Program-made: the position numbers and the translations under genes
NCBI GenBank assembly: GCA_965219455.1
Contig: OZ244744.1
Coordinates: 2,491,587-2,555,586, forward strand
Reading direction: 5' to 3'
DNA from: Candidatus Latescibacterota bacterium
GTDB lineage: Bacteria; Latescibacterota; UBA2968; GCA-2709665
Length of the DNA: 64,000 nt
Notes under the pieces: model-generated
The model's database searches: none
What the model saw: only the letters and a program-made list of their open reading frames with translations
What the model was told of the DNA's origin: nothing
Shown: positions 4,601-41,711 of the stretch, piece by piece
How positions within the stretch are numbered: position 1 is the first letter of the stretch
Layout of the letters: each line of letters begins with the position of its first letter

Positions 4601-7600
4601 GGATACCGACGGTGGGACATTGAGCTACGACCTTGAAGGCACGGATCAGGCCTCTTTCGATCTCGACGGCAACCAGCTTCAGACCCAATCGGGCGAGACC
4701 TACGACTTTGAGGAGAAGCCCGGCTACGACGTGACGGTTCGCGTCGAGGACGGACAGGGCGGCAGCAACACCATTGAGGTCACGATCAATCTGACGGACC
4801 AGCAGGAAAAACCCGGGATCCCGGACGCGCCCGGCGTCTCGGCGGCCTCGTCCACAAGCCTTACTGCGACCTGGGATGGGCCCGCAAACACCGGCCCCGA
4901 CGTCAACGACTACGACGTGCAGTACCGGGAGGGCGACAGCGGCGGCTTCAGCTCGTGGACGCACAACGGCGCGGACCGCACCGCAACCATCACGGATCGG
5001 ACGCCGGGCACGACCCACCAGGTGCAGGTACTCGCGCGCAGTCCCGAGGGCACAAGCGATTGGTCCGAATCGGGCACGGGAAGCACCAGCCCCAATCAGC
5101 TGCCGATATTCACCGATGGATCCGGCGCCACGCGTGAATTGGCCGAGAACACCACCGGCGTAAAGGACGTCGGCGATCCGGTGGGCGCCACGGACTCCGA
5201 GAAGACCACGCTGACCTACGCGCTTGAAGGCACCCACGCGGATACCTTTTCTATCGACGCGCGCAGCGGGCAGATCCGCACCAGGACGGGGAAGACCTAC
5301 GACTACGAGGCCACGCCACGATTTTCCGTGGACGTAAGGGCAACCGACGGCCACGGCGGCGACAACAGCCTCCCCGTGTCCATCGACCTTACCGATCTGA
5401 ACGAAGTTCCCGTATTTCCCGGCGAGGCGACGCTCGAGGCAGCGGAGAACCAGTCCTTCGCAGGAACGGTCACCGCCGAGGACCTGGATCGCGACGACGC
5501 CATCACGAATTACACCATTACCGGAGGCAGCGACCGGGACCTGCTGGAGATAAGTAGCGGAGGCGCGTTGACCTTCAAGGATGACCCCGACTTCGAGAGT
5601 CCCACCGACGCCGGAAGGAACAACGGCTACGTCGTCGAGGTCACCGTAACCGGTGGATCCGGAGGCCGCGCGCTGACCGCCGAGCAGCACTTTACCGTCA
5701 CCGTCACGGACGAAAACGAACCGCCCCGTTTCACCAGTGTGGATACATTCGCGGTCAAGGAAAATGAGCTGCTGGCAGGCCGATTGGCCGCACAGGACGT
5801 GGACAGAGACGACGGGATCACGGGCTACGAGGTCAATGCCGGGCGTGACGGAGATCGGTTCGAGATCGAGAACACCAGGGAGTTGCACTTCAAGGATAAA
5901 CCTGACTTCGAGCGGCCGGCGGATTCCGGAGGGAACAACGAATACATCGTTGTGGTCGAGGTGACGGGCGGCGCGGACACCCGGGAGCGAAATGCAACGC
6001 AGACCATAACCGTCACGGTGGAGGACGACGTCGAGCCGCCGGGCGAACCGGACCCGCCCACGGTGAGCGACGAGACCGAAAGCAGCCTGACGGTGAGTTG
6101 GGACGAACCGGACAACCCCGGTCCCGCCATTACGAACTATTTTGTGCAATACCGCGAGAGCGGCGCGTTCATCGACTCGCCGGACAGTGGACTGACCCGG
6201 ACGCGCACGATCACCGGCCTGCGCTCGGGCCGAACCTACCAGATTCAGGTGCAGGCGAAGAACGATGAAGGCAAGGGACCGTGGTCCGGACGGGCGAACG
6301 GAACGACGCTCACCGCGCCCACCGTTTCAAGCGCCGCGTTCACCTCCACACCGGCCTCAGGACAGAACGGCGCCTACAAGAAGGACGACGTCATCGACGT
6401 GACCGCGACTTTCAACGAAGCGGTGACCGTCACCGGCGCGCCCCAGATCGACCTGACGATCGGTTCCACCCTGCGCAAGGCCGACTATAAAAGCGGCTCG
6501 ACCACAACCCAGCTTCTCTTCCAATATGCGGTGGCGGACACCGACGAGGACAAGGATGGCGCGACCATCAACGAAAACGGCCTGAAGCTGAACAACGGCC
6601 GCATCTACATCCTCGTGAACAGCACCACCGTCAACGCCGACCTGGCGCACGCGGCGCGCGCCAACCGGTCCAGCCACAAGGTGGATGGCGTCCCACCGGG
6701 GCTCACCGACACGGAGGTGAAAAGCGACGAGTTGGTGCTTACTTTCGGCGAGAGCCTCGACCGCGATCCCAGGCCGGCAACGGGCGACTTTTCGGTGACG
6801 GCGGACGACTCGACACTTGGCGTCACGGCAGTTACGATGCGCACCAGCGACGTGGCGCTCACCATCGACCCGGCCGTAACCCCCGGACAGACGGTCTCGC
6901 TGGCCTACACGCCGGGGACCAACCCGATCCGGGACCAGGCGCAGAACCCCGCCATCGCGCTCACAAACCTGACGGTTAGAAACAACACTCAGGACCAGAC
7001 CTTGAACGTCTGCGTCCGCACCCGGCAGGTGCGCGACGCGATTACGGATGCGGCAGGGGTAAGCACGTGCGGCGAGGTAACCGGGGACCATTTGTCGGCA
7101 ATCACCCGGCTCTCGCTGAGCGAGAAGAACATCTCAACGCTGAAGGCCAATGACTTTGCAGGGCTGACGGCTCTGGAGACACTCTTTTTGAGAGACAACC
7201 AGATCAGCAGTCTGCCGCAGGACCTCTTCTCCGCGCTGTCAGCGCTGGAAACGCTTTCCCTCCGTGACAACGATTTCGCAAGCCTCAACGCGAGTCTCTT
7301 TTCGAGTCTGTCAGACCTGAGAATCCTTTTGCTGGACGGCAACCAACTCGACAGCCTGCATACAGATCTGTTCTCCGAACTCTCGGCGCTGGAAGCCCTC
7401 GATCTGAATGGCAACGGACTCAGCAGTCTGCCGCAGAGTGTCTTCTCCAACCTTTCGGCGCTGAGAATCCTCGATCTGGACGGTAATAAACTCAGCAGCC
7501 TTGATGCGAGTGTCTTCTCCAGCCTCTCGGCGCTGGAAGGCCTCGATCTGGACGGCAACGAGCTCAGCAGTCTGGATGCGAGTGTCTTCTCCAACCTTTC

Positions 7601-10600
7601 GGCGCTGAGAATCCTCGACCTGAACGGCAACAAACTCAGCAGCCTGAATACAAATATCTTCTCCAGCCTCTCGGCGCTGGAAAGCCTCGACCTGGACGGC
7701 AACGGACTCAGCAGCCTGGATGCGAGTACCTTCTCCAACCTCTCGGCGCTGCAAGCGCTCGACCTGAGCAAGAACCAACTCAGCAGCCTGCCTCAGAACA
7801 TCTTTTCCGGTCTGTCATCGCTGCAGGCGCTCTATCTCAACGAACAGGAATCCGGTCACGAACTCGGCAGCCTGGACGCTGATATATTCTCCGGCCTCAC
7901 CGCGTTGACAACACTCCGGCTGGAACAAAACGATATCGGCAGCCTGGACGCGGGACTCTTCACCGGGTTGACCGACATGGAAACGCTCAGGCTGGACAAT
8001 AACAGCCTCAGCAGCCTGCCAGATGGAATCTTCTCCGGGCTTACTTCGCTGACTACGCTCAACCTTGAGGGCAACACGGTCGACCCCCTTCCCATTAACG
8101 TGTCCCTGGAACGGGTCGCGTTGGGTCAATTCAGGGCCAAAGCGAACACCGGCGCGCCCTTTGACATGGTTTTGGCCCTGCTGGTGACCAACGGCTCCAT
8201 CGACGGCGGCGGGAGCAGCATCGAAATCCCCCAGGGTGACGCGCAAAGCAGCACATATACGGTAACCCGCACGACCGGCATGTCCGCGGCGGTTACAGTC
8301 GACATAGGCACGTTTCCCGACCTTCCCGGAACCGACAACGGCTACGCGCTGGTCAAGTCCGACGACCTGCCGCTCGAAGTCATCCCGGGGCTGCCGGATG
8401 TGAATATATACCCGACGGCGCTATCCGTGGCCGTGGGCGACAGCAATACCTACACAATGGCCCTTAACTCCATGCCGACGATGGATGTCACGGTCACGGT
8501 GGACGTGCCGTCGGGTTCCGACGTTTCGGTGAACCCGATGGAACGCATGTTTGCTGCCGACACCTATGACATGTCGCAGACCGTGACGGTGATCGCAGAT
8601 ACTGCCGCAGTGGCAGATGCCATGGTCACGTTGAGCCACATGGTCAGCGGTGGCGACTATCAGAACGTCTCGGCAGACGACGTCGCCGTGACGATCATCG
8701 GCGCTACCACTGGCAACCAGTTGCCAACCTTCGTCAGCGACAGCAGGTACGACGTCAAGGAAAACGAAACCTCGGTGGCCACGGTCGCAGCCACGGACGG
8801 GGACGCGAGAGACTACGTCACCGGCTACGAGATTACCGGCGGCGCCCAGCAGGCGCAGTTCGAAATCACCGGCGATGGTGTATTGACCTTCGTGACCGCC
8901 CCCGACTTTGAGCGTCCCGCCGTGAGCAGCAATTCGTATGTCGTCACGGTCACAGCCACGAGCGGAATCGAAGACAGAGAGCGGACCGCCCGACAGACGA
9001 TCGTTGTCTCCGTAACGGACGATGACGAACCGCCGGGGCAGCCGCCCGCGCCCATATTGGATCTCTCATACGCGTCTTACCGCACGATCGGGGTGAGCCC
9101 CGGCCGGAGACCGCCCGCGAACACCGGCCCGGAAATCACCGCCTGGGATATCCAGTATCGTATCAGGAATACCGGCGATTTCAAAATCCACGATCCGGAT
9201 CCGGAGCCGGACTGGACGCAACCGGACTGGGAAACGGCAATCACGCGTCTGGACAGGGGCGCGACCTACGAGGTACAGGTGCGTGCGAAGAACGACGAAG
9301 GGGAGAGCGAGTGGTCTCCGTCGGCCGAAGCGCCGATTCCCAATCAGTCCCCGGTCGCGGACGGCTCCTTCGACGACCTGACGCTTCCGGTGGGAGGCGC
9401 CGTTGAGATCGTGTCCGCGGACGACGTGTTCGACGATCCCGACGATATCAGGTTGACGTATACGGCGGCGTCCAGCAACACGGCTGCGGCGTCGGTGAAG
9501 GTGATCGATACCGAAGGCCTGGTCGATCCCCTGTCGTCGGGCGGTGCGACGATTACGGTTACGGCGACCGATCCGTGGGGCGCAACCGTGTCGGAGTCGT
9601 TCAGCGTTATTGTCCGGACACCGACCCTGTCCGCGCCCACCCTGAGCATCAGCGGCAACCTGTTCACACTTGAATTCACGAACGACTTCGCCGCCAACGA
9701 AACCAGGGCCTACGAGGTCAGAATCCGGCAGAAGGAGCCGATCGGCAATTGGGCCAGGGGGTGTTTCACGATAACCAACGACGAGAATACCGCCAGGTCC
9801 GTTACGGTAACGGTTCAGGACCTGGTTTCCGATTTCTTCGTGCCCGGCAACACCTACGAGGCGGACTACGGATACCTCGGGACGGCCTGCGGCGGCAGCC
9901 TGGCGGACGTACGCTCCGCGGCTGCCGAGGCGTCCGTTCCCGGAACCCCCGCCTTCAATATCGACCTCATCTACGCCGGCGGCACACCGGCCCGGAGGGT
10001 TCAGCTGGCTCTTGACAATGCCGTGGCGCGTTGGGAGCGGATCATCGCCCAGGACATCCCCAACCACCGTCTGTCGGCCAACCGCCGCAATTTGCTGGAG
10101 AGGCTTTTTCCGGGAACCACCTCCCCCGAGGTTGTGGATGACCTGGTGGTCTACGTGGAAGTCGTTGAAATCGACGGACAAAGCGGCACGCTCGGACAGG
10201 CGGGGCGTCTCGTTTGGCGCGTCCCGTCCTCCCTCCCGATCGCAGCCTTCATCGAACTCGACCGGGACGACCTGAGGACCATGTCTGACAATAAGTTGAC
10301 ACCTCTCGTTCTGCACGAGATAGGCCACACGTTGGGATTCGGTCTCGCACCGTGGACGGATCACAACCTTTTGAAGAACCCCTCTCTCGATCAGAACGAC
10401 GACCCCATTGTTCCCGCCCCGGATACGCATTTCTCGGGTGCGAACGCGATTGCCGCGTTCAACGCCGCGGGCGGGTCCGGCTATACGGGCGCGAAAGTGC
10501 CCGTGGAAAACACGTGGGGCGGATCGGGCAGCCAGGACAGCCACTGGCGGGAATCCGTAATGCAGAGCGAACTGATGACGCCCAGGGTGGGCGAAGCCGT

Positions 10601-36150: not shown

Positions 36151-36185
36151 ATCAGCTAAAAGCCATCAGCCGTCAGCAGTCAGCT
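36151..36185. repeat. F2 AGCTGA-rich repeat, inverted relative to the 27135 copy
   Basis: atcagctaaaagccatcagccgtcagcagtcagct. Confidence 0.7.
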
Positions 36186-36282
36186 TGAACCGGTTAGAGA
36201 TACGGACTTGCGATGTCCCTTCACAATATCCGCGCTATTATGTGGGCGCCTCTTGGCTGCAAATTCAACGGCTGCGCGGAAC

Positions 36283-36340
36283 TCTCCCCCCGGCCCCAAG
36301 GCCCTCACCCCCCAACCCCCTCTCCCAGCGGGAGAGGGGG
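36283..36340. repeat. Hairpin repeat family F1, copy C (inverted, with an internal insertion)
   Basis: CTCTCCCCCCGGCCCC...CCCCCTCTCC-CAGCG-GGAGAGGGGG. Confidence 0.75.
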
Positions 36341-36436
36341 AGCAAAAGCAGGAAAAGCGGCCTCGCACGGAGACACGAAGACACAAAGGGCAAGACAGCG
36401 ATGAGCGATCTGCAGACAACAGGCCTGAGTAACCCA

Positions 36437-36778
36437 ATGAACACAATGACCCATAGAGGATATGCGGCTCGAATCGACTATAGCCATGAAGACGGCTGCT
36501 TCGTTGGTCATATTGCAGGGATCAATGATGTGGTAGGCTTTCACGGCGAGTCGGTCGAAGAACTGCGTGATGCTTTTGTGGAATCGGTGGACGACTATCT
36601 TGAAACCTGTGAAAAGCTCGACATGTCCCCTCAAAAGCCATATTCCGGCAATCTGATGTTGCGGATTCCACCAGAGGTTCACGCAGCGATTGCCACGGCG
36701 GCTGAAGTCAGCGGAAAGAGTATCAATCAGTGGGCGACTGAAACACTCGCCGATGTCTTGGAGACGGATGCACGATAA
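36437..36778 (+). CDS. hicB: HicB-family antitoxin, copy 1; orphan, with only about 30 nt of the hicA 3' end left upstream
   Basis: MNTMTHRGYAARIDYSHEDGCFVGHIAGINDVVGFHGESVEELRDAF...NLMLRIPPEVHAAIATAAEVSGKSINQW is a HicB N-domain followed by an RHH-like C-terminus. The ORF-track extension back to 36185 runs through repeat DNA. Confidence 0.8.
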   Translation: MNTMTHRGYAARIDYSHEDGCFVGHIAGINDVVGFHGESVEELRDAFVESVDDYLETCEKLDMSPQKPYSGNLMLRIPPEVHAAIATAAEVSGKSINQWATETLADVLETDAR

Positions 36779-36989
36779 TGAGGGAAGCGAAGGCAGCGTA
36801 TATGGTATGCGCCTTATGTGGGACCCTTTTATGGCTTCGCTCTGAAACCGGCCGCGTCACAAGCAATCCGGATTCGCAAGCCAGAACGCACGACATGACG
36901 TAGCGAAGACTTCCTTAATCACCAAAGATTCCTATCTCGTTTTTCTTGACACATGTCGCGGCGAATTTGACAAGATATGAGGTATTGAA

Positions 36990-37877
36990 TTGGCTTGCCT
37001 ATGTATTCTCTGTGAGAGTTCTCCACCGATAGAGAATTCCCATATAGTCCCGAAATTATTCATTCGAAGGCTTATGAAAGGCACTTCAGTAAAGGCGCTC
37101 AGAGATTCCAATAACGTGACAAGACCAGTTCAGGATGGATGGAAGGGGCGATACCTTTGCCAGCAGTGTGAGATACGGTTTTCTGCCTGGGAAACAGATT
37201 TCGCCAATAGAATTTACGATCCCTTTCTGAATGCGAGCAAGGATCCCGCAGTGCAAGACATTACGTTGGTGCTCTTTGTCACCTCCCTCCATTTTCGTTA
37301 CTTGGAATATGCGAAGGAACGCAATAGTGGTTTTACTGAAAGTGAAGATTTGTCCAATCTCACAAAAAGACTGAAGGATGCACTCTTAGAAAGTCGTTCA
37401 CCGGTTGATATACATCTGTACGCGATGCCATTGTACCCAATAACGGATCCTGGAATTCTTCCGGCAGGTGTAAATACCTATTTCTTTGAAGCCATAGATG
37501 GCTGCGCTTTTGATTGGTTTCTGTCAAGCGATAGAACGATTTGGATTTCATATGTAAAGGTTCCAGGATTTATGTTCTTTTCAAGCTCCGGACCAATAGA
37601 AGATATCTGGAGTGGACCAGATTCATTGGAGCCATACAAAATCGATGGAAATGGAACATTCGACTTAGACATAAAACATTCCCGTATTCTGTTATCTGTA
37701 GTGGATTGTTTCTTGGAAAAGCGGACTCGGGAAATCCAAGAAGCTTATAGAAGCATGCCAGATTCCCAGATTTTAAAAATCATTGAACAAATCAAAAAAG
37801 ATCCTGATTATCAGAATAGCAGAGCTTACCGAACCTACCTTTTTGACTTGCAGCTAATCCGTAATTGCGAGATCTGA
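36990..37877 (+). CDS. Hypothetical protein with an N-terminal HNH-like (CxxC...H...CxxC) zinc-finger nuclease motif; AT-rich foreign gene
   Basis: TTG start with GAGG 8 nt upstream. (M)ACLCILCESSPPIENSHIVPK...YLCQQCEIRFSAWE, then a C-terminal region of about 200 aa that I do not recognise. About 40-47% GC on lines I counted. Confidence 0.5.
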   Translation: MACLCILCESSPPIENSHIVPKLFIRRLMKGTSVKALRDSNNVTRPVQDGWKGRYLCQQCEIRFSAWETDFANRIYDPFLNASKDPAVQDITLVLFVTSLHFRYLEYAKERNSGFTESEDLSNLTKRLKDALLESRSPVDIHLYAMPLYPITDPGILPAGVNTYFFEAIDGCAFDWFLSSDRTIWISYVKVPGFMFFSSSGPIEDIWSGPDSLEPYKIDGNGTFDLDIKHSRILLSVVDCFLEKRTREIQEAYRSMPDSQILKIIEQIKKDPDYQNSRAYRTYLFDLQLIRNCEI

Positions 37878-38166
37878 GTGCATATGTTTAAACGGGATGT
37901 CAACGACTACAATTCAGATTAAGAGAGTATGTACTAACACCTTGGAATGCCCTTCTTCTAACATTCTAGCCCTGGCAGCGGACCCTTCGCCCTTGTGGCC
38001 AACCTCTGCTCAGTTCGTAGGCGAAAAACGAACTCTAGTGAAACAGGAATCACTATCCTTAGATTCAAATACATTTCTACTGTTTTCTAATATTCACGAC
38101 CCAATTGATCCACCCTGCGTATTCCCTTTCATCCCACATCTAAACCACACCAACGAAAGGAACCAC

Positions 38167-38550
38167 ATGACGAAATCCGATCCATTTGAACAAGGCCTCG
38201 CGGCCGGTGAGGCAGCGGCTTCCGTCACCGGAGGCGCGTCACAGTCATCGTCGAACGGCGGGCGTATGTAAGTGCGCACACAGAGTTTCGGGTCAACCGA
38301 TGCGGAGTTGCGTTTTCTGCAGCGCTGCGGCGTGCGCCACAAGGCCGTTATCTTTCCGTTCCACCCCGGCAGGGGCTGGGACCTCGAGGAACTGGTCCAG
38401 GTACGAGAGCGCCACGAGGCCTTCGGGATAACACTGGATATGAGCTCGCTGCCCATATACGAGAGATTTCCCAACATTATCTATTTTGGCAAAAGCCCGG
38501 AGCGTGACCGGGAAATCGACCTCGTGGGTATTGACGTAACTGATCGGTAA
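38167..38550 (+). pseudogene. Truncated duplicate of the 5' third of the UxuA-like gene at 40641, with an in-frame TAA
   Basis: 38167-38525 aligns almost base-for-base with 40641-40999. TAC becomes TAA at 38269-38271. Homology ends at 38525, after which the sequence is unrelated. Confidence 0.85.
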
Positions 38551-38672
38551 TACCTTAGTTATGCAAAACTGACGCAGGGAGCCCTAAACCCCACACCGAA
38601 AATCGCGCACAAAACCAAACACCTCGAATATCTACCGAACCTCTTGGTGAGAGCTAATATACCGAGCATCTC

Positions 38673-39317
38673 ATGACCATTTCAATTGACTTCAACAATC
38701 TCACCGCAATTGACCGAGGTCATGTCTTCCTTAGTCTTGAAGATAGTATCAAGGAGTCGTTAGGAGTATGGCCGGAGTTCCTTGATCGGATTGAGAATTC
38801 TCTTGAGTTCATACATAGAATCGGAGGAGAATATAAAGACCGATTTCGATGTGGCCTCATTCGTGCAGCCCTAACCGAACTCGTTTCGATTGAGGATATC
38901 CAAAAAAAACTAATTCATAATCGTATTGTTGGCCATAAACATAGACTGAATACTTCACGCCAGCCGCTGCTATGTGTCGTACGTGAACTCAGAAATATTG
39001 AAATTCACATTTCATCAGCCACACTTGCCGACGAAAAACGACAGTTATTGTGGGGAAATATTGATAATCCTAGAGAGGCTACTCCAGTCAAATGGACGAT
39101 TCGTTGGATCGATAATCTTTCTATCAGGGATTTCGAGCAGCTTCGGTACTTCGAAAATTATAACCGCGATGAATTTGACCGGGCATTGAGATGGTTTGAC
39201 GACAACCAACGCAAATGGGGTATCGAGGAGGTTATGTTTCGGGCGATCTCACTGTATGCCCATGAGATCGCCCATCACTTGGCGACAATCCGAAAATCGA
39301 CTTTGATGTGTAGATAA
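38673..39317 (+). CDS. Hypothetical protein with an RNxxxH (HEPN-like, Rx4-6H) motif; AT-rich foreign gene
   Basis: 214 aa. ...QPLLCVVRELRNIEIHISS contains R-N-I-E-I-H. I did not recognise any other family. Confidence 0.45.
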   Translation: MTISIDFNNLTAIDRGHVFLSLEDSIKESLGVWPEFLDRIENSLEFIHRIGGEYKDRFRCGLIRAALTELVSIEDIQKKLIHNRIVGHKHRLNTSRQPLLCVVRELRNIEIHISSATLADEKRQLLWGNIDNPREATPVKWTIRWIDNLSIRDFEQLRYFENYNRDEFDRALRWFDDNQRKWGIEEVMFRAISLYAHEIAHHLATIRKSTLMCR

Positions 39318-39547
39318 AGATTCCCAAGTCGGTATGGTGCAATCATTCCGGACTGGAATGGAGACGGATTGAAGCCCTTTTCAACGCAATCGGAGCTAAA
39401 CCAATTGAAGGCAGAGGTTCACGGGTGCGGTTTGAGCTGAATGATGTTGTCGCCACCTTTCACCGTCCCCACCCTCAGAAAGACGCAAAGCCCTATCAAG
39501 TGCGTGATGCGAGACATTTTCTACAACAGGCAGGAGTAACCCCATGA
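39314..39547 (+). pseudogene. hicA: HicA-family toxin, 5'-truncated with no start codon
   Basis: My translation: ...LEWRRIEALFNAIGAKPIEGRGSRVRFELNDVVATFHRPHPQKDAKPYQVRDARHFLQQAGVTP*. The frame opens right after the TAG at 39311-39313, with no ATG/GTG/TTG before the conserved core. The stop overlaps the hicB ATG (ATGA at 39544-39547). Confidence 0.75.
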
Positions 39548-39888
39548 ACACAATGACCCATAGAGGATATGCGGCTCGAATCGACTACAGTGATGAAGAT
39601 GGCTGCTTCATTGGTCATATTGCGGGAATCAATGACGTGGTAGGCTTTCACGGCGAATCAGTCGAACAACTGCGTGATGCCTTTGAAGAATCGGTTGACG
39701 ACTATCTTGAAACCTGTGAAAAGCTCAACAGGTCCCCTCAAAAGCCATATTCCGGTAATCTGATGTTGCGGATTCCACCAGAGGTTCACGCAGCGATTGC
39801 CACGGCGGCTGAAGTCAGCGGAAAGAGTATCAATCAGTGGGCGACTCAAACACTCGCCGATGTTTTGGAGACGGATGCACTGAAATGA
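39544..39888 (+). CDS. hicB: HicB-family antitoxin, copy 2
   Basis: 114 aa, about 92% identical to copy 1 (roughly 8-9 differences by my count). Confidence 0.85.
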   Translation: MNTMTHRGYAARIDYSDEDGCFIGHIAGINDVVGFHGESVEQLRDAFEESVDDYLETCEKLNRSPQKPYSGNLMLRIPPEVHAAIATAAEVSGKSINQWATQTLADVLETDALK

Positions 39889-40255
39889 GGGAAGCGAAAG
39901 CACCTTAAGTAGTGTGCATTTTATATTTGACTCTGAGGCAGTTCGCGGAAAAACCGGCCCCGCGCCTAGGGGCGCGTTAAGGAATCAAAAGTCTAAACCA
40001 AATTCAACATCACCCCAAATTCCCTGCCTTCGGCGAGTTCCTTTTGAAGCGACCAAAAGGAACCAAAAGTCGCCGCTAGGCGCGGGGCCTGCTATATGCA
40101 TGGCACGAATCTCGACTGTGGACGCCCCAGAGCTTCTGCCCTGCCAGCCCAGGAGGATACCGTAATTGGCAGTGGGACGGAACCGCGCGCGCTGCTCTGG
40201 TAGTCCTCTTGAACGGCATCGCGTTAGAAATCAGCCTGGCTTCCTGTGAGCGAGG

Positions 40256-40450
40256 AGCTGTTAGCGATCAGCCAACAGCCGTCAGCTAAAACCCGATTTC
40301 GATATGGCGAGGCGATGTCAATTCACGGATATTCGCGCCAAAAACGAGGGCAACCACGAGGGTTGCCCCTACAAATGCAACGCTGGCACGTACAACAGCG
40401 ATATCACGGATGTCGGGTTTTTGTAGGGGCGGTTCGCGAACCGCCCGTCT
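40256..40450. repeat. Composite intergenic repeat block: F2 tract (40256-40290), F3 hairpin GGGCAACCACGAGGGTTGCCCCTACA (40348-40374), GGGCGGTTCGCGAACCGCCC hairpin (about 40427-40446)
   Basis: The F3 core and about 30-40 nt of each flank recur inverted at 58500-58595. Confidence 0.75.
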
Positions 40451-40640
40451 TTCGCGCAATAACACGCCAATCCACTCAGCAGTCCTTCCAAATCAATTTC
40501 TCGCGCGAACGGTCTTCCGGACAAGAATCTCCGGGTAATTCGAAATGGATGACGCCACCAAGCTTTCTTCCACCACAGATCGCGACAGTGTACGTCGTCT
40601 GTTTCCCCTCATCAATGCCATAACAACGAAAGGAACCAGC

Positions 40641-41711
40641 ATGAAGAAATCCGATCCGTTTGAACAAGGCCTCGCAGCCGGTGAGGCGGCCGCTTCCGCC
40701 ACCGGAGGCGCGTCACAGTCATCGTCGAACGGCGGGCGTATGTACGTGCGCACACAGAGTTTCGGGTCCACCGATGCGGAGTTGCGTTTTCTGCAGCGCT
40801 GCGGCGTGCGTCACAAGGCCGTTGTCTTTCCGTTCCACCCCGGCAGGGGCTGGGACCTCGAGGAACTGGTACAGGTACGAGAGCGCCACGAGGCCTTCGG
40901 GATCACACTGGATATGAGCTCGCTGCCCATATACGAGCGTTTTCCCAACATCATCTATTACGGCAAAAGCCCGGAGCGCGACCGGGAAATCGACCTCGTA
41001 TGCGAGATGATCCGGACCGCTGCGCGCGCCGGCATCGATTCTCTGCGTTATAACACTTGCGTCCTTCCCATCGACCGTACGGAACCGGAGGAAGGTCGCG
41101 GCGGCTTCTACCACACCGCGTTCCGCGTGGAAAAGATCCCGGCGGAAGAACAGGCCAGGCTGACTGACGCCGGACGCGTCACGGCGGACATGTACTGGGA
41201 GCGAATTGACTATCTGCTCGAACGCATGATCCCCGTGGCGGAAGAATTCAAGGTTCGAATGGGCAATTCCCAGGAAGACCCTGCCACACCCCCCGGTTAT
41301 ATGGGCGTTGACAAAGTCCTCAATGACTTTGAGGGCATGAAGCGTTTCATCGAGATTCAGCGGGGTCCGTATCACGGTTGGAACTTCTGCGTCGGCTCCG
41401 TCGCTGAAGGGCTGGAAGATCCGGCCACTGAAATCTACCCCATCATCGAATACTTCGGCAGCCGTAACACGATCTTCCTGGTTCACTATCGAAACATCCT
41501 CGGCGGGCGTTACAGCTTCCGCGAGTCTCTGCCCGATGAAGGAGATATGGACTTTCACCGCGTGTTGAAGGCCCTCAAGGACACCGGCTACCGTTACGGC
41601 ATCGATCCGGACCACGTTCCGTGGACTGACGACGATCCGATGCGCTCCTATCAGTCCTACGCGTACTGCTTCGGCTACATCAATGCCATGATTCAGGCGG
41701 TCTACGGTTAA
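40641..41711 (+). CDS. Mannonate dehydratase (UxuA)-like TIM-barrel enzyme
   Basis: The C-terminal ...FRESLPDEGDMDFHRVLKALKDTGYRYGIDPDHVPW...YCFGYINAMIQ resembles UxuA. The start is ambiguous: 40641 gives a 33-aa low-complexity extension, while 40740 gives MYVRTQSFG. Confidence 0.6.
   Translation: MKKSDPFEQGLAAGEAAASATGGASQSSSNGGRMYVRTQSFGSTDAELRFLQRCGVRHKAVVFPFHPGRGWDLEELVQVRERHEAFGITLDMSSLPIYERFPNIIYYGKSPERDREIDLVCEMIRTAARAGIDSLRYNTCVLPIDRTEPEEGRGGFYHTAFRVEKIPAEEQARLTDAGRVTADMYWERIDYLLERMIPVAEEFKVRMGNSQEDPATPPGYMGVDKVLNDFEGMKRFIEIQRGPYHGWNFCVGSVAEGLEDPATEIYPIIEYFGSRNTIFLVHYRNILGGRYSFRESLPDEGDMDFHRVLKALKDTGYRYGIDPDHVPWTDDDPMRSYQSYAYCFGYINAMIQAVYG

Follow-up and report, generated by a model that had tools for sequence, protein, structure and literature searches.

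The HEPN domain is recognized by a small set of sequence and structural hallmarks: the Rx4-6H motif, a polar residue (N, D or H) directly after the arginine, a helix 2 that carries a conserved acidic residue and is separated from helix 3 by an insert, and a motif that closes helix 3 and extends into the next loop (PMC3710099). In Csx1, a beta-hairpin follows the HEPN motif directly (PMC3710099). AbiV, the lactococcal abortive-infection (Abi) RNase of 201 amino acids (aa), has an N-terminal segment and conserved E67 and K70 in α3, followed by the motif (residues 91-97) and a beta-hairpin (141-151), and the last two helices close its core bundle; neither R nor H of its motif is strictly conserved, and the activity of the RNase is inhibited by a required upstream RNA (abiV2 for abiV1). 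Here, we describe a gene of 214 codons, designated ORF214 (open reading frame 38673-39317, + strand), in a 64,000-nucleotide (nt) stretch of the Candidatus Latescibacterota bacterium contig OZ244744.1 (the window hereafter; all positions refer to it unless another contig is named), and address how its protein family, its genomic surroundings and its junction with a toxin gene of the HicAB type compare with described systems. Based on conservation within the family, ORF214 and its relatives may be a divergent group of stand-alone HEPN-like RNases acting as single-gene effectors of Abi or toxin type, an assignment to which we give about an even chance.

ORF214 starts with ATG, terminates with TAA at 39315-39317 and codes for a protein that includes LLCVVRELRNIEIHISS, with R107-N-I-E-I-H112 situated within VRELRNIEIH. 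A preceding reading made from the letters of the window alone (the sequence-only reading) had described an AT-rich 214-aa frame carrying RNIEIH, and the coordinates, the AT-rich composition (guanine-cytosine, GC, content 42.9% vs 58.3% for the whole window) and the motif were all reproduced. Since the ratio of non-synonymous to synonymous substitution rates (dN/dS) falls between 0.13 and 0.41 in comparisons with five homologs, ORF214 is a real coding gene subjected to purifying selection. As for the motif, its occurrence in this single sequence is no more than expected by chance, because at least one Rx4-6H match (ORF214 has three) appears in 95% of composition-preserving shuffles and the narrower R[NDH]x3H in 14% of them; significance is gained only through conservation.

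A word-indexed search returned 13 relatives of ORF214, and an exhaustive profile search encompassing 1.84 billion representatives of clusters formed at 50% identity yielded 277 clusters at E <= 1e-3, 199 of them at E <= 1e-10. Nearly all matches are single-domain proteins of 195-230 aa aligned end to end, and in all sources members of the family are named “hypothetical protein” and nothing else. In the alignment of 136 sequences used for conservation analysis, which descends to 20% identity with ORF214 and has a mean column identity of 17%, R107 and H112 are the sole invariant columns (136/136 each), so that the RNxxxH motif of HEPN type proposed from the sequence holds in the form R-[N/H]-x3-H: position 108 is occupied by N in 103 and by H in 30 of the 136 sequences, and the family consensus around it reads PLLHxxRELRNxxxHL. 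The codons for these six residues, with R107 and H112 as a putative catalytic dyad of the Rx4H motif, occupy 38991-39008 on the + strand. The acidic position is represented by E69 (codon 38877-38879, + strand; E in 126 and D in nine sequences) in the long helix 56-82, and E74 and [D/E]75 are also conserved nearby. Thus, three of the sequence hallmarks of HEPN domains are found in the family, namely the spacing of R and H, N or H next to R, and a conserved E or D in the helix before. Near-invariance is also seen elsewhere, at R64 (133 of 136), R39 and Q179 (130 each), G183 (135), Y163 (Y in 123, F in 11) and W174. A few members carry additional sequence: those of cluster C4, including P0080 (353 aa), are extended at the C terminus by about 150 aa that match nothing in Pfam, and in P0057 (284 aa) similarity to the family begins only at residue 69; both may be fusion variants.

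The same columns bear on the proposal that the product is not an enzyme at all and serves as a regulator, an adaptor, or an immunity or anti-defence protein, with R and H engaged in binding or structure. Two invariant polar residues five positions apart against a mean column identity of 17% form a pattern characteristic of catalytic sites, no conserved partner toxin exists to be neutralized, and absence from phage genomes and viral contigs speaks against an anti-defence role. What can be said for a non-enzymatic function is the lack of a fold match for the structural model and the appearance of Barstar and Imm-type families among the Pfam matches of individual members, these being weak and at chance level; altogether we consider it improbable.

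Prediction with AlphaFold2 produced a confident model when supplied with a deep alignment (predicted local distance difference test, pLDDT, 97.0; predicted template modelling score, pTM, 0.92) and a less certain one with a shallow alignment (83.7 and 0.84, respectively). About two-thirds of the model is helical and a single beta-hairpin is present, consistent with the mostly helical protein anticipated from residue pattern. Three helices (24-30, 34-50, and 56-82) precede the motif, followed by a loop (83-97) that is variable and accommodates insertions and deletions in the alignment, and by the motif helix 98-113, at the C-terminal end of which R107 and H112 are placed; in the shallow model this helix spans 98-106 only and the motif is coil. 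The hairpin (strands 118-127 and 137-146) comes next, then two short helices, and the chain ends with helices 165-182 and 184-213. In the model, these elements follow one another as published for HEPN domains, including the place of the variable segment and of the motif, and the hairpin comes right behind the motif as it does in Csx1.

Nevertheless, the comparison with known folds and families weighs against membership in the HEPN superfamily. Foldseek run with both models against 350,542 chains of the Protein Data Bank (PDB) gave nothing better than E 0.08, no HEPN chain was found among the top 50 PDB matches, and a search of the first model against BFVD gave no match. The best-scoring PDB chain belongs to MakB, which is not a HEPN protein (E 0.08, template modelling (TM) score 0.18, root mean square deviation (rmsd) 21 Å). 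MakB, another alpha-pore-forming toxin NheA, and G-protein-coupled receptors were rejected as relatives, since all these alignments (TM below 0.3, rmsd above 12 Å) pair long helices and a hairpin in an unspecific way; the hairpin of ORF214 is polar, unlike the membrane tongue of pore-forming toxins. At the sequence level, ORF214 has no match in Pfam, NCBIfam or PADLOC, Pfam gave no assignment for 14 close and 136 diverse members, PADLOC likewise none for the 136, and no HEPN model of Pfam was matched by eight consensus sequences of the family and its sub-families. Among PDB sequences, only chance matches were found with profiles built for the whole family or restricted to residues 34-117 (the core region), and hhalign against an alignment of six RnlA/LsoA sequences (from E. 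coli K-12 and plasmid records) returned an uninformative probability of 0.2%. Sub-threshold Pfam matches that recur in theme among the 136 members do point to HEPN families, albeit in three members only: HEPN_Cthe2314 in two (best E 0.0054) and HEPN_AbiV in one (E 0.052). For instance, P0005 aligns to PF18730 over residues 82-131, that is, the motif region, with 12.1 bits (E 0.2) at a gathering threshold of 27.1 bits. Such scores lie far under the gathering cut-offs and could stem from nothing more than the short motif, and they favour the HEPN assignment weakly. The profile matches that define AbiV, Cthe_2314, HepT/DUF86, RnlA/LsoA or any other curated family were tested and did not extend to ORF214, which on this sequence evidence is placed outside all of them.

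The comparison of folds leans negative for HEPN, since the Foldseek search retrieved no HEPN structure, although the element order in the model fits. The HEPN fold implied by the sequence-only reading obtained no support from Foldseek, where a model of pLDDT 97 remained without PDB match, and membership of the family in the superfamily is best called plausible and unproven, because neither a PDB fold match nor a profile reaching a known HEPN family was obtained. The natural competitor is an Arg/His-pair enzyme (nuclease, phosphodiesterase, or other hydrolase) built on a fold unrelated to HEPN, for which Rx4H would be convergent. It would readily account for a confident model having no neighbour in the PDB (nor the first model in BFVD) and no profile link to HEPN, for the near-invariance of R39, Y163, W174, Q179, and G183 outside the canonical HEPN signature, and for the large beta-hairpin and two extra helices inserted between the motif helix and the C-terminal helices. 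The sequence hallmarks speak against this competitor, as the spacing, the N or H after R, the acidic residue and the position of the variable insert are all in place; besides, Csx1 and AbiV are HEPN families that are likewise structurally aberrant. Foldseek performs weakly on small helical bundles with insertions, which also counts against an unrelated fold, and we regard this competitor as unlikely, though not to be dismissed lightly. Close to it stands a broader conjecture, that the family constitutes a structurally new single-gene immune effector targeting RNA (or another nucleic acid), the dyad of which arose independently of HEPN or belongs to a deep rearranged offshoot; this we deem doubtful.

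If ORF214 is a divergent HEPN-like RNase, as we are inclined to think about as readily as not, its action may be pictured from the established biochemistry of HEPN domains (PMC3710099), according to which dimerization would bring two R/H pairs together into a composite metal-independent RNase site. The protein would stay latent until a trigger provided by infection or stress, whereupon it would cut cellular or phage RNA (rRNA, tRNA, or mRNA), leaving 2′,3′-cyclic phosphate ends, and RNA cleavage would result in growth arrest and abortive infection.

A role in defence may be judged from the company kept by the homologs, and their neighbours proved to be varied and often related to defence or mobility, BREX-like genes being among them. 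In one locus (L001), the homolog is found near a type I restriction-modification system (HsdR/S/M), GmrSD, and transposases; in three others (L002-L004), near PD-(D/E)XK, PDC-S11, SNF2 helicase, MazE, and PglX/MmeI-like methylase genes, where the PDC-S11 assignment relies on a 350-aa protein (L003, 1400-2452) matching this candidate, unvalidated PADLOC system with E 2e-74. GmrSD, PIN/MazE, HNH, and Mrr-like genes together with IS21 surround the homolog in L006, and in L017 a KAP-family NTPase (4877-6805) matches another candidate, unvalidated PADLOC system, PDC-S49 (E 2e-205). Patatin and AAA genes (L019), the AccI restriction enzyme (L029), a RES-domain (toxin) protein with an integrase on three Xanthomonas citri plasmids (L023), and serine and tyrosine recombinases (L020, L026) complete this set. 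All-against-all phmmer comparison of 486 ORFs located within 3 kb on either side of the homologs in 18 loci revealed no neighbour family common to at least three lineages, implying that ORF214 works alone or with something other than a conserved adjacent protein. A pattern scan of 50,697 phage genomes and IMG/VR detected no phage or viral relatives, which speaks neither for nor against a gene serving in host defence; a metagenome scan with a family alignment gave two short contigs only.

Within the window itself, the most conspicuous candidate for a partner is ORF295 (36990-37877, + strand), an AT-rich cassette (42.0% GC) in the neighbourhood of ORF214. Its product and relatives (10 proteins, no Pfam annotation) share the invariant residues C5-x2-C8, N16-S17-H18, and C57-x2-C60, i.e., the pattern CxxC…NSH(I)VP…CxxC, and ORF295 has no match in Pfam, PADLOC, or NCBIfam. 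The earlier suggestion that this upstream frame is HNH-like is a fair guess in view of such a pattern, which is plausibly that of an HNH or treble-clef-like protein; confirmation by a profile match was not obtained. The idea that ORF295 and ORF214 make up a nuclease/RNase defence pair did not survive the check for co-occurrence: tblastn with ten members of the ORF295 family against all fetched loci found matches in L014-L016 only, which belong to the window's own strain, and no relatives are present in the remaining contexts of ORF214 homologs, about 16 in number, including a syntenic metagenome contig (L007) where the slot is filled by other genes. The option of two independent cassettes, left open by the sequence-only reading, is therefore the one borne out, since ORF295 relatives are missing at all other ORF214-homolog loci.

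A local multi-gene system could alternatively be composed of ORF214 and HicB2, the product of the hicB copy located downstream, which would act as an antitoxin with ORF214 in place of HicA. HicB proteins are partners specific to HicA, and no neighbour family is shared by at least three lineages. Because hicB is a direct neighbour in the window, in L014-L016 and in the syntenic L007 but at no other locus of an ORF214 homolog, that is, in the population of the window and one related contig, neutralization of ORF214 by HicB is unlikely on such distribution. What speaks for a local system, whether with ORF295 or with HicB2, is the adjacency of these genes in the window and in L014-L016 of the same strain, as well as the end-to-start fusion of ORF214 with the remnant of hicA and hicB2 with no terminator between them; set against the restricted occurrence of both supposed partners, this makes either version very improbable.

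The unit that accompanies ORF214 from one context to another may be delimited by comparison of DNA sequences. Similarity with L002-L005 extends from 38586 (some 87 nt ahead of the start codon) to the stop codon with 83% identity, with L006 and L011 it begins about 35-36 nt upstream (78-79% identity), and with L007 the upstream part reaches back to 38529, so a leader of 90-145 nt (about 82-83% identity) has been inherited together with the gene in L002-L005 and L007 as in the window. Since in unrelated contexts similarity spans the leader to the stop only, the mobile unit is, as judged by these alignments, the bare gene with a short leader, moved horizontally; its AT-rich composition and its recurrence at 78-83% DNA identity in unrelated contexts mark the gene as foreign. 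Neither flanking repeats nor a transposase of its own were found for this cassette. Relatives are distributed over metagenome-assembled genomes (MAGs) labelled Latescibacterota, Chthoniobacterales, and delta proteobacterium, a contig named Chlorobium sp., and the Xanthomonas plasmids. In L013, a MAG of “uncultured delta proteobacterium”, a frameshifted copy of the family member is split into three overlapping ORFs (7037-7759) and represents a pseudogene.

The upstream non-coding segment travelling with ORF214 (38586-38672, + strand; boundaries from blastn and alignment), presumed to comprise a promoter and 5′ untranslated region, deserves attention in connection with AbiV. Its last 36 nt or so before the ATG (38637-38672; ACCTCTTGGTGARAGC..AATATACSGAGC) are conserved in all five aligned contexts (window, L003, L006, L007, and L011). 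One might suppose that ORF214 is the toxin of a type III-like toxin-antitoxin (TA) system controlled by an upstream RNA antitoxin, as described for abiV2/abiV1. Conservation of these 36 nt and co-inheritance of the longer leader would suit such an arrangement, as would the lack of a conserved protein partner and the requirement for an inhibitory upstream RNA in AbiV, which of the functional analogues comes nearest in size and layout. On the other hand, the segment contains no tandem repeats and no Rfam match, its predicted folding is not significantly better than that of shuffled sequences (z = 0.11), and the part shared with L006 and L011 would equally fit a promoter or leader. No sigma-70 consensus was recognized on the + strand. 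RNA-controlled toxicity thus seems a rather remote prospect.

In the window, the cassette is joined to a toxin-antitoxin locus precisely at its downstream end. The frame of hicA has a stop codon TAG at 39311-39313, is open from 39314 to TGA at 39545-39547 and offers no ATG, GTG, or TTG before the first canonical start, GTG at 39425. The translated segment 39320-39544 covers positions 1-58 of 58 of the Pfam HicA_toxin model (E 9e-13), so the remnant hicA′ (39314-39547, + strand) retains the complete domain. In comparison with an intact 84-aa HicA of a Rhizobium plasmid (64% identical), approximately six N-terminal codons including the start are absent, and the native promoter is lost as well. 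The junction with hicA is placed at the stop codon of ORF214 because DNA similarity to cassettes from unrelated contexts stops there, which reproduces exactly the overlap of the stop codon with the opening of the start-less hicA frame reported in the sequence-only reading. The accompanying statement that insertion replaced the 5′ end of hicA by a second, putative RNase stands in the part concerning decapitation of hicA, evidenced by the domain, the missing start, and the DNA alignment; the identity of ORF214 as an RNase lacks a fold or profile match. The joining of the cassette to hicA exactly at the stop codon cost hicA its promoter and about six first codons, and the HicA toxin is probably silenced at this locus.

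The antitoxin gene hicB2 (39544-39888, + strand; Pfam HicB, E 1.3e-21) is intact and overlaps the stop of hicA′ by ATGA. Since the scan found no terminator-like site on the + strand between 39317 and 39544, hicB2 is now probably transcribed by read-through from ORF214. A second copy, hicB1 (36401-36778, + strand), arose by duplication and marks the left border of a variable island; the segments 36416-36795 and 39523-39902 show 92.9% identity across 380 nt. In front of hicB1, hicA has been reduced to about 21 nt from its 3′ end (36416-36436), and the preceding 230 nt (36185-36415) are unrelated and GC-rich, with short tandem repeats at 36161-36184, 36294-36326, and 36366-36388. Hence, a usable hicA is absent beside both copies of hicB in the window. 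Immediately to the left of the ORF214 cassette, a duplicated 5′ fragment of a UxuA-like gene, uxuA′ (38133-38525, + strand), is 93.7% identical to 40606-40999. Two ORFs of 124 aa (37897-38271) and 92 aa (38272-38550) were considered as independent genes in this region and rejected, because their conserved parts correspond to the frame of uxuA′ with a stop at 38269-38271. The entire order over 36401-41711 is hicB1, ORF295, uxuA′, the ORF214 cassette, hicA′-hicB2, the full UxuA-like gene, and PhyH, and the same arrangement is found in the contigs L014-L016 with an identical ORF214 protein.

The metagenome contig L007 (1-7400) is syntenic to this locus, with flanks 94-97% identical to the window at the DNA level, and carries ORFs of 302 and 379 aa without Pfam or PADLOC match where the window has ORF295 and uxuA′. 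Its ORF214 homolog is 82% identical in DNA, and the synonymous divergence (dS) of 0.44 may be compared with 0.11 for uxuA and 0.025 for PhyH. A further deletion of 120 bp has occurred there over the junction of ORF214 and hicA′ (4181-4250 of L007 vs 39284-39403 of the window), as a result of which the homolog loses about 11 last codons and ends out of frame in hicA (…APISKAEVHG), and hicA′ is reduced to 47 codons. Because the cargo enclosed by the two hicB copies differs between the window and L007, the space they border looks like a hotspot for variable cargo established on a decayed toxin-antitoxin locus. Should ORF214 belong to a new fold after all, its effector would be expected to spread by exchange of bare-gene cassettes into hotspots such as this decayed and duplicated hicAB locus, a scenario that we find somewhat unlikely.

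If confirmed as an RNase effector, ORF214 would add a fairly widespread unannotated family to the single-gene defence toxins of HEPN/Abi type, one which current libraries of defence finders would miss given the lack of matches in PADLOC, Pfam, and NCBIfam. The confident model unmatched in the PDB offers a cheap target for examining the limits of transplantation or rearrangement of the HEPN active site, and the locus itself clearly illustrates a toxin-antitoxin module that was decapitated, its duplicated hicB genes now enclosing a hotspot for variable cargo. No current idea is overturned, since one more HEPN-like family in a defence island is a find of the expected kind.

As compared with known systems, the downstream module resembles type II HicAB in the complete HicA_toxin domain of hicA′, the intact HicB, and the usual ATGA overlap, and departs from it in that hicA′ has neither a start codon nor its own promoter and hicB1 is left nearly without hicA; HicA is unrelated to ORF214. 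With RnlA/LsoA (RNase LS), whose role is anti-phage, ORF214 has in common an R…E pair in an upstream helix combined with R-x4-H (R255/E258 and R318/H323 in RnlA vs R64/E69 and R107/H112), whereas RnlA and LsoA are three-domain proteins of about 350 aa having the antitoxins RnlB and LsoB, and hhalign gave a probability of 0.2%. HepT/MntA (DUF86-MNT, type VII TA) likewise employs a small helical toxin with an RNxxxH-type HEPN motif; in contrast, no conserved neighbour lies within 3 kb on each side of ORF214 homologs in 18 loci, the gene tables list no nucleotidyltransferase, Pfam gives no match to DUF86, HEPN, or NTase_sub_bind, and ORF214 is about 80 aa longer and contains a beta-hairpin. The Cthe_2314-like HEPN proteins (PF18730), AbiD/F Abi_2, AbiJ, and AbiU2 (Anantharaman et al. 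2013) are closer, being small single-gene proteins of defence islands with the L-R-N-x3-H signature and a sporadic distribution driven by horizontal gene transfer, although scores of the ORF214 family for the Cthe_2314-like model remain far below the 27.1-bit threshold and its consensus sequences match no HEPN model. The most extensive resemblance, established by comparing the order of elements in the AlphaFold2 model with the published description, is to AbiV (HEPN_AbiV, PF18728). Both are stand-alone proteins of similar size (201 vs 214 aa) without a protein antitoxin, both have two long helices after the N-terminal segment with a conserved Glu (E67 in AbiV, E69 in ORF214), an R-N-x-H-type motif after the next element (91-97 vs 107-112), and a beta-hairpin succeeded by two C-terminal core helices. 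They differ in that R and H are strictly invariant at a fixed x4 spacing in the ORF214 family, the hairpin of ORF214 is longer and follows the motif directly, ORF214 itself has no PF18728 match, and folding, Rfam and repeat tests of its upstream segment gave no support for an abiV2-like RNA. By this analogy, the nearest counterparts of ORF214 in function and form would be the small stand-alone HEPN proteins of Abi type, above all AbiV.

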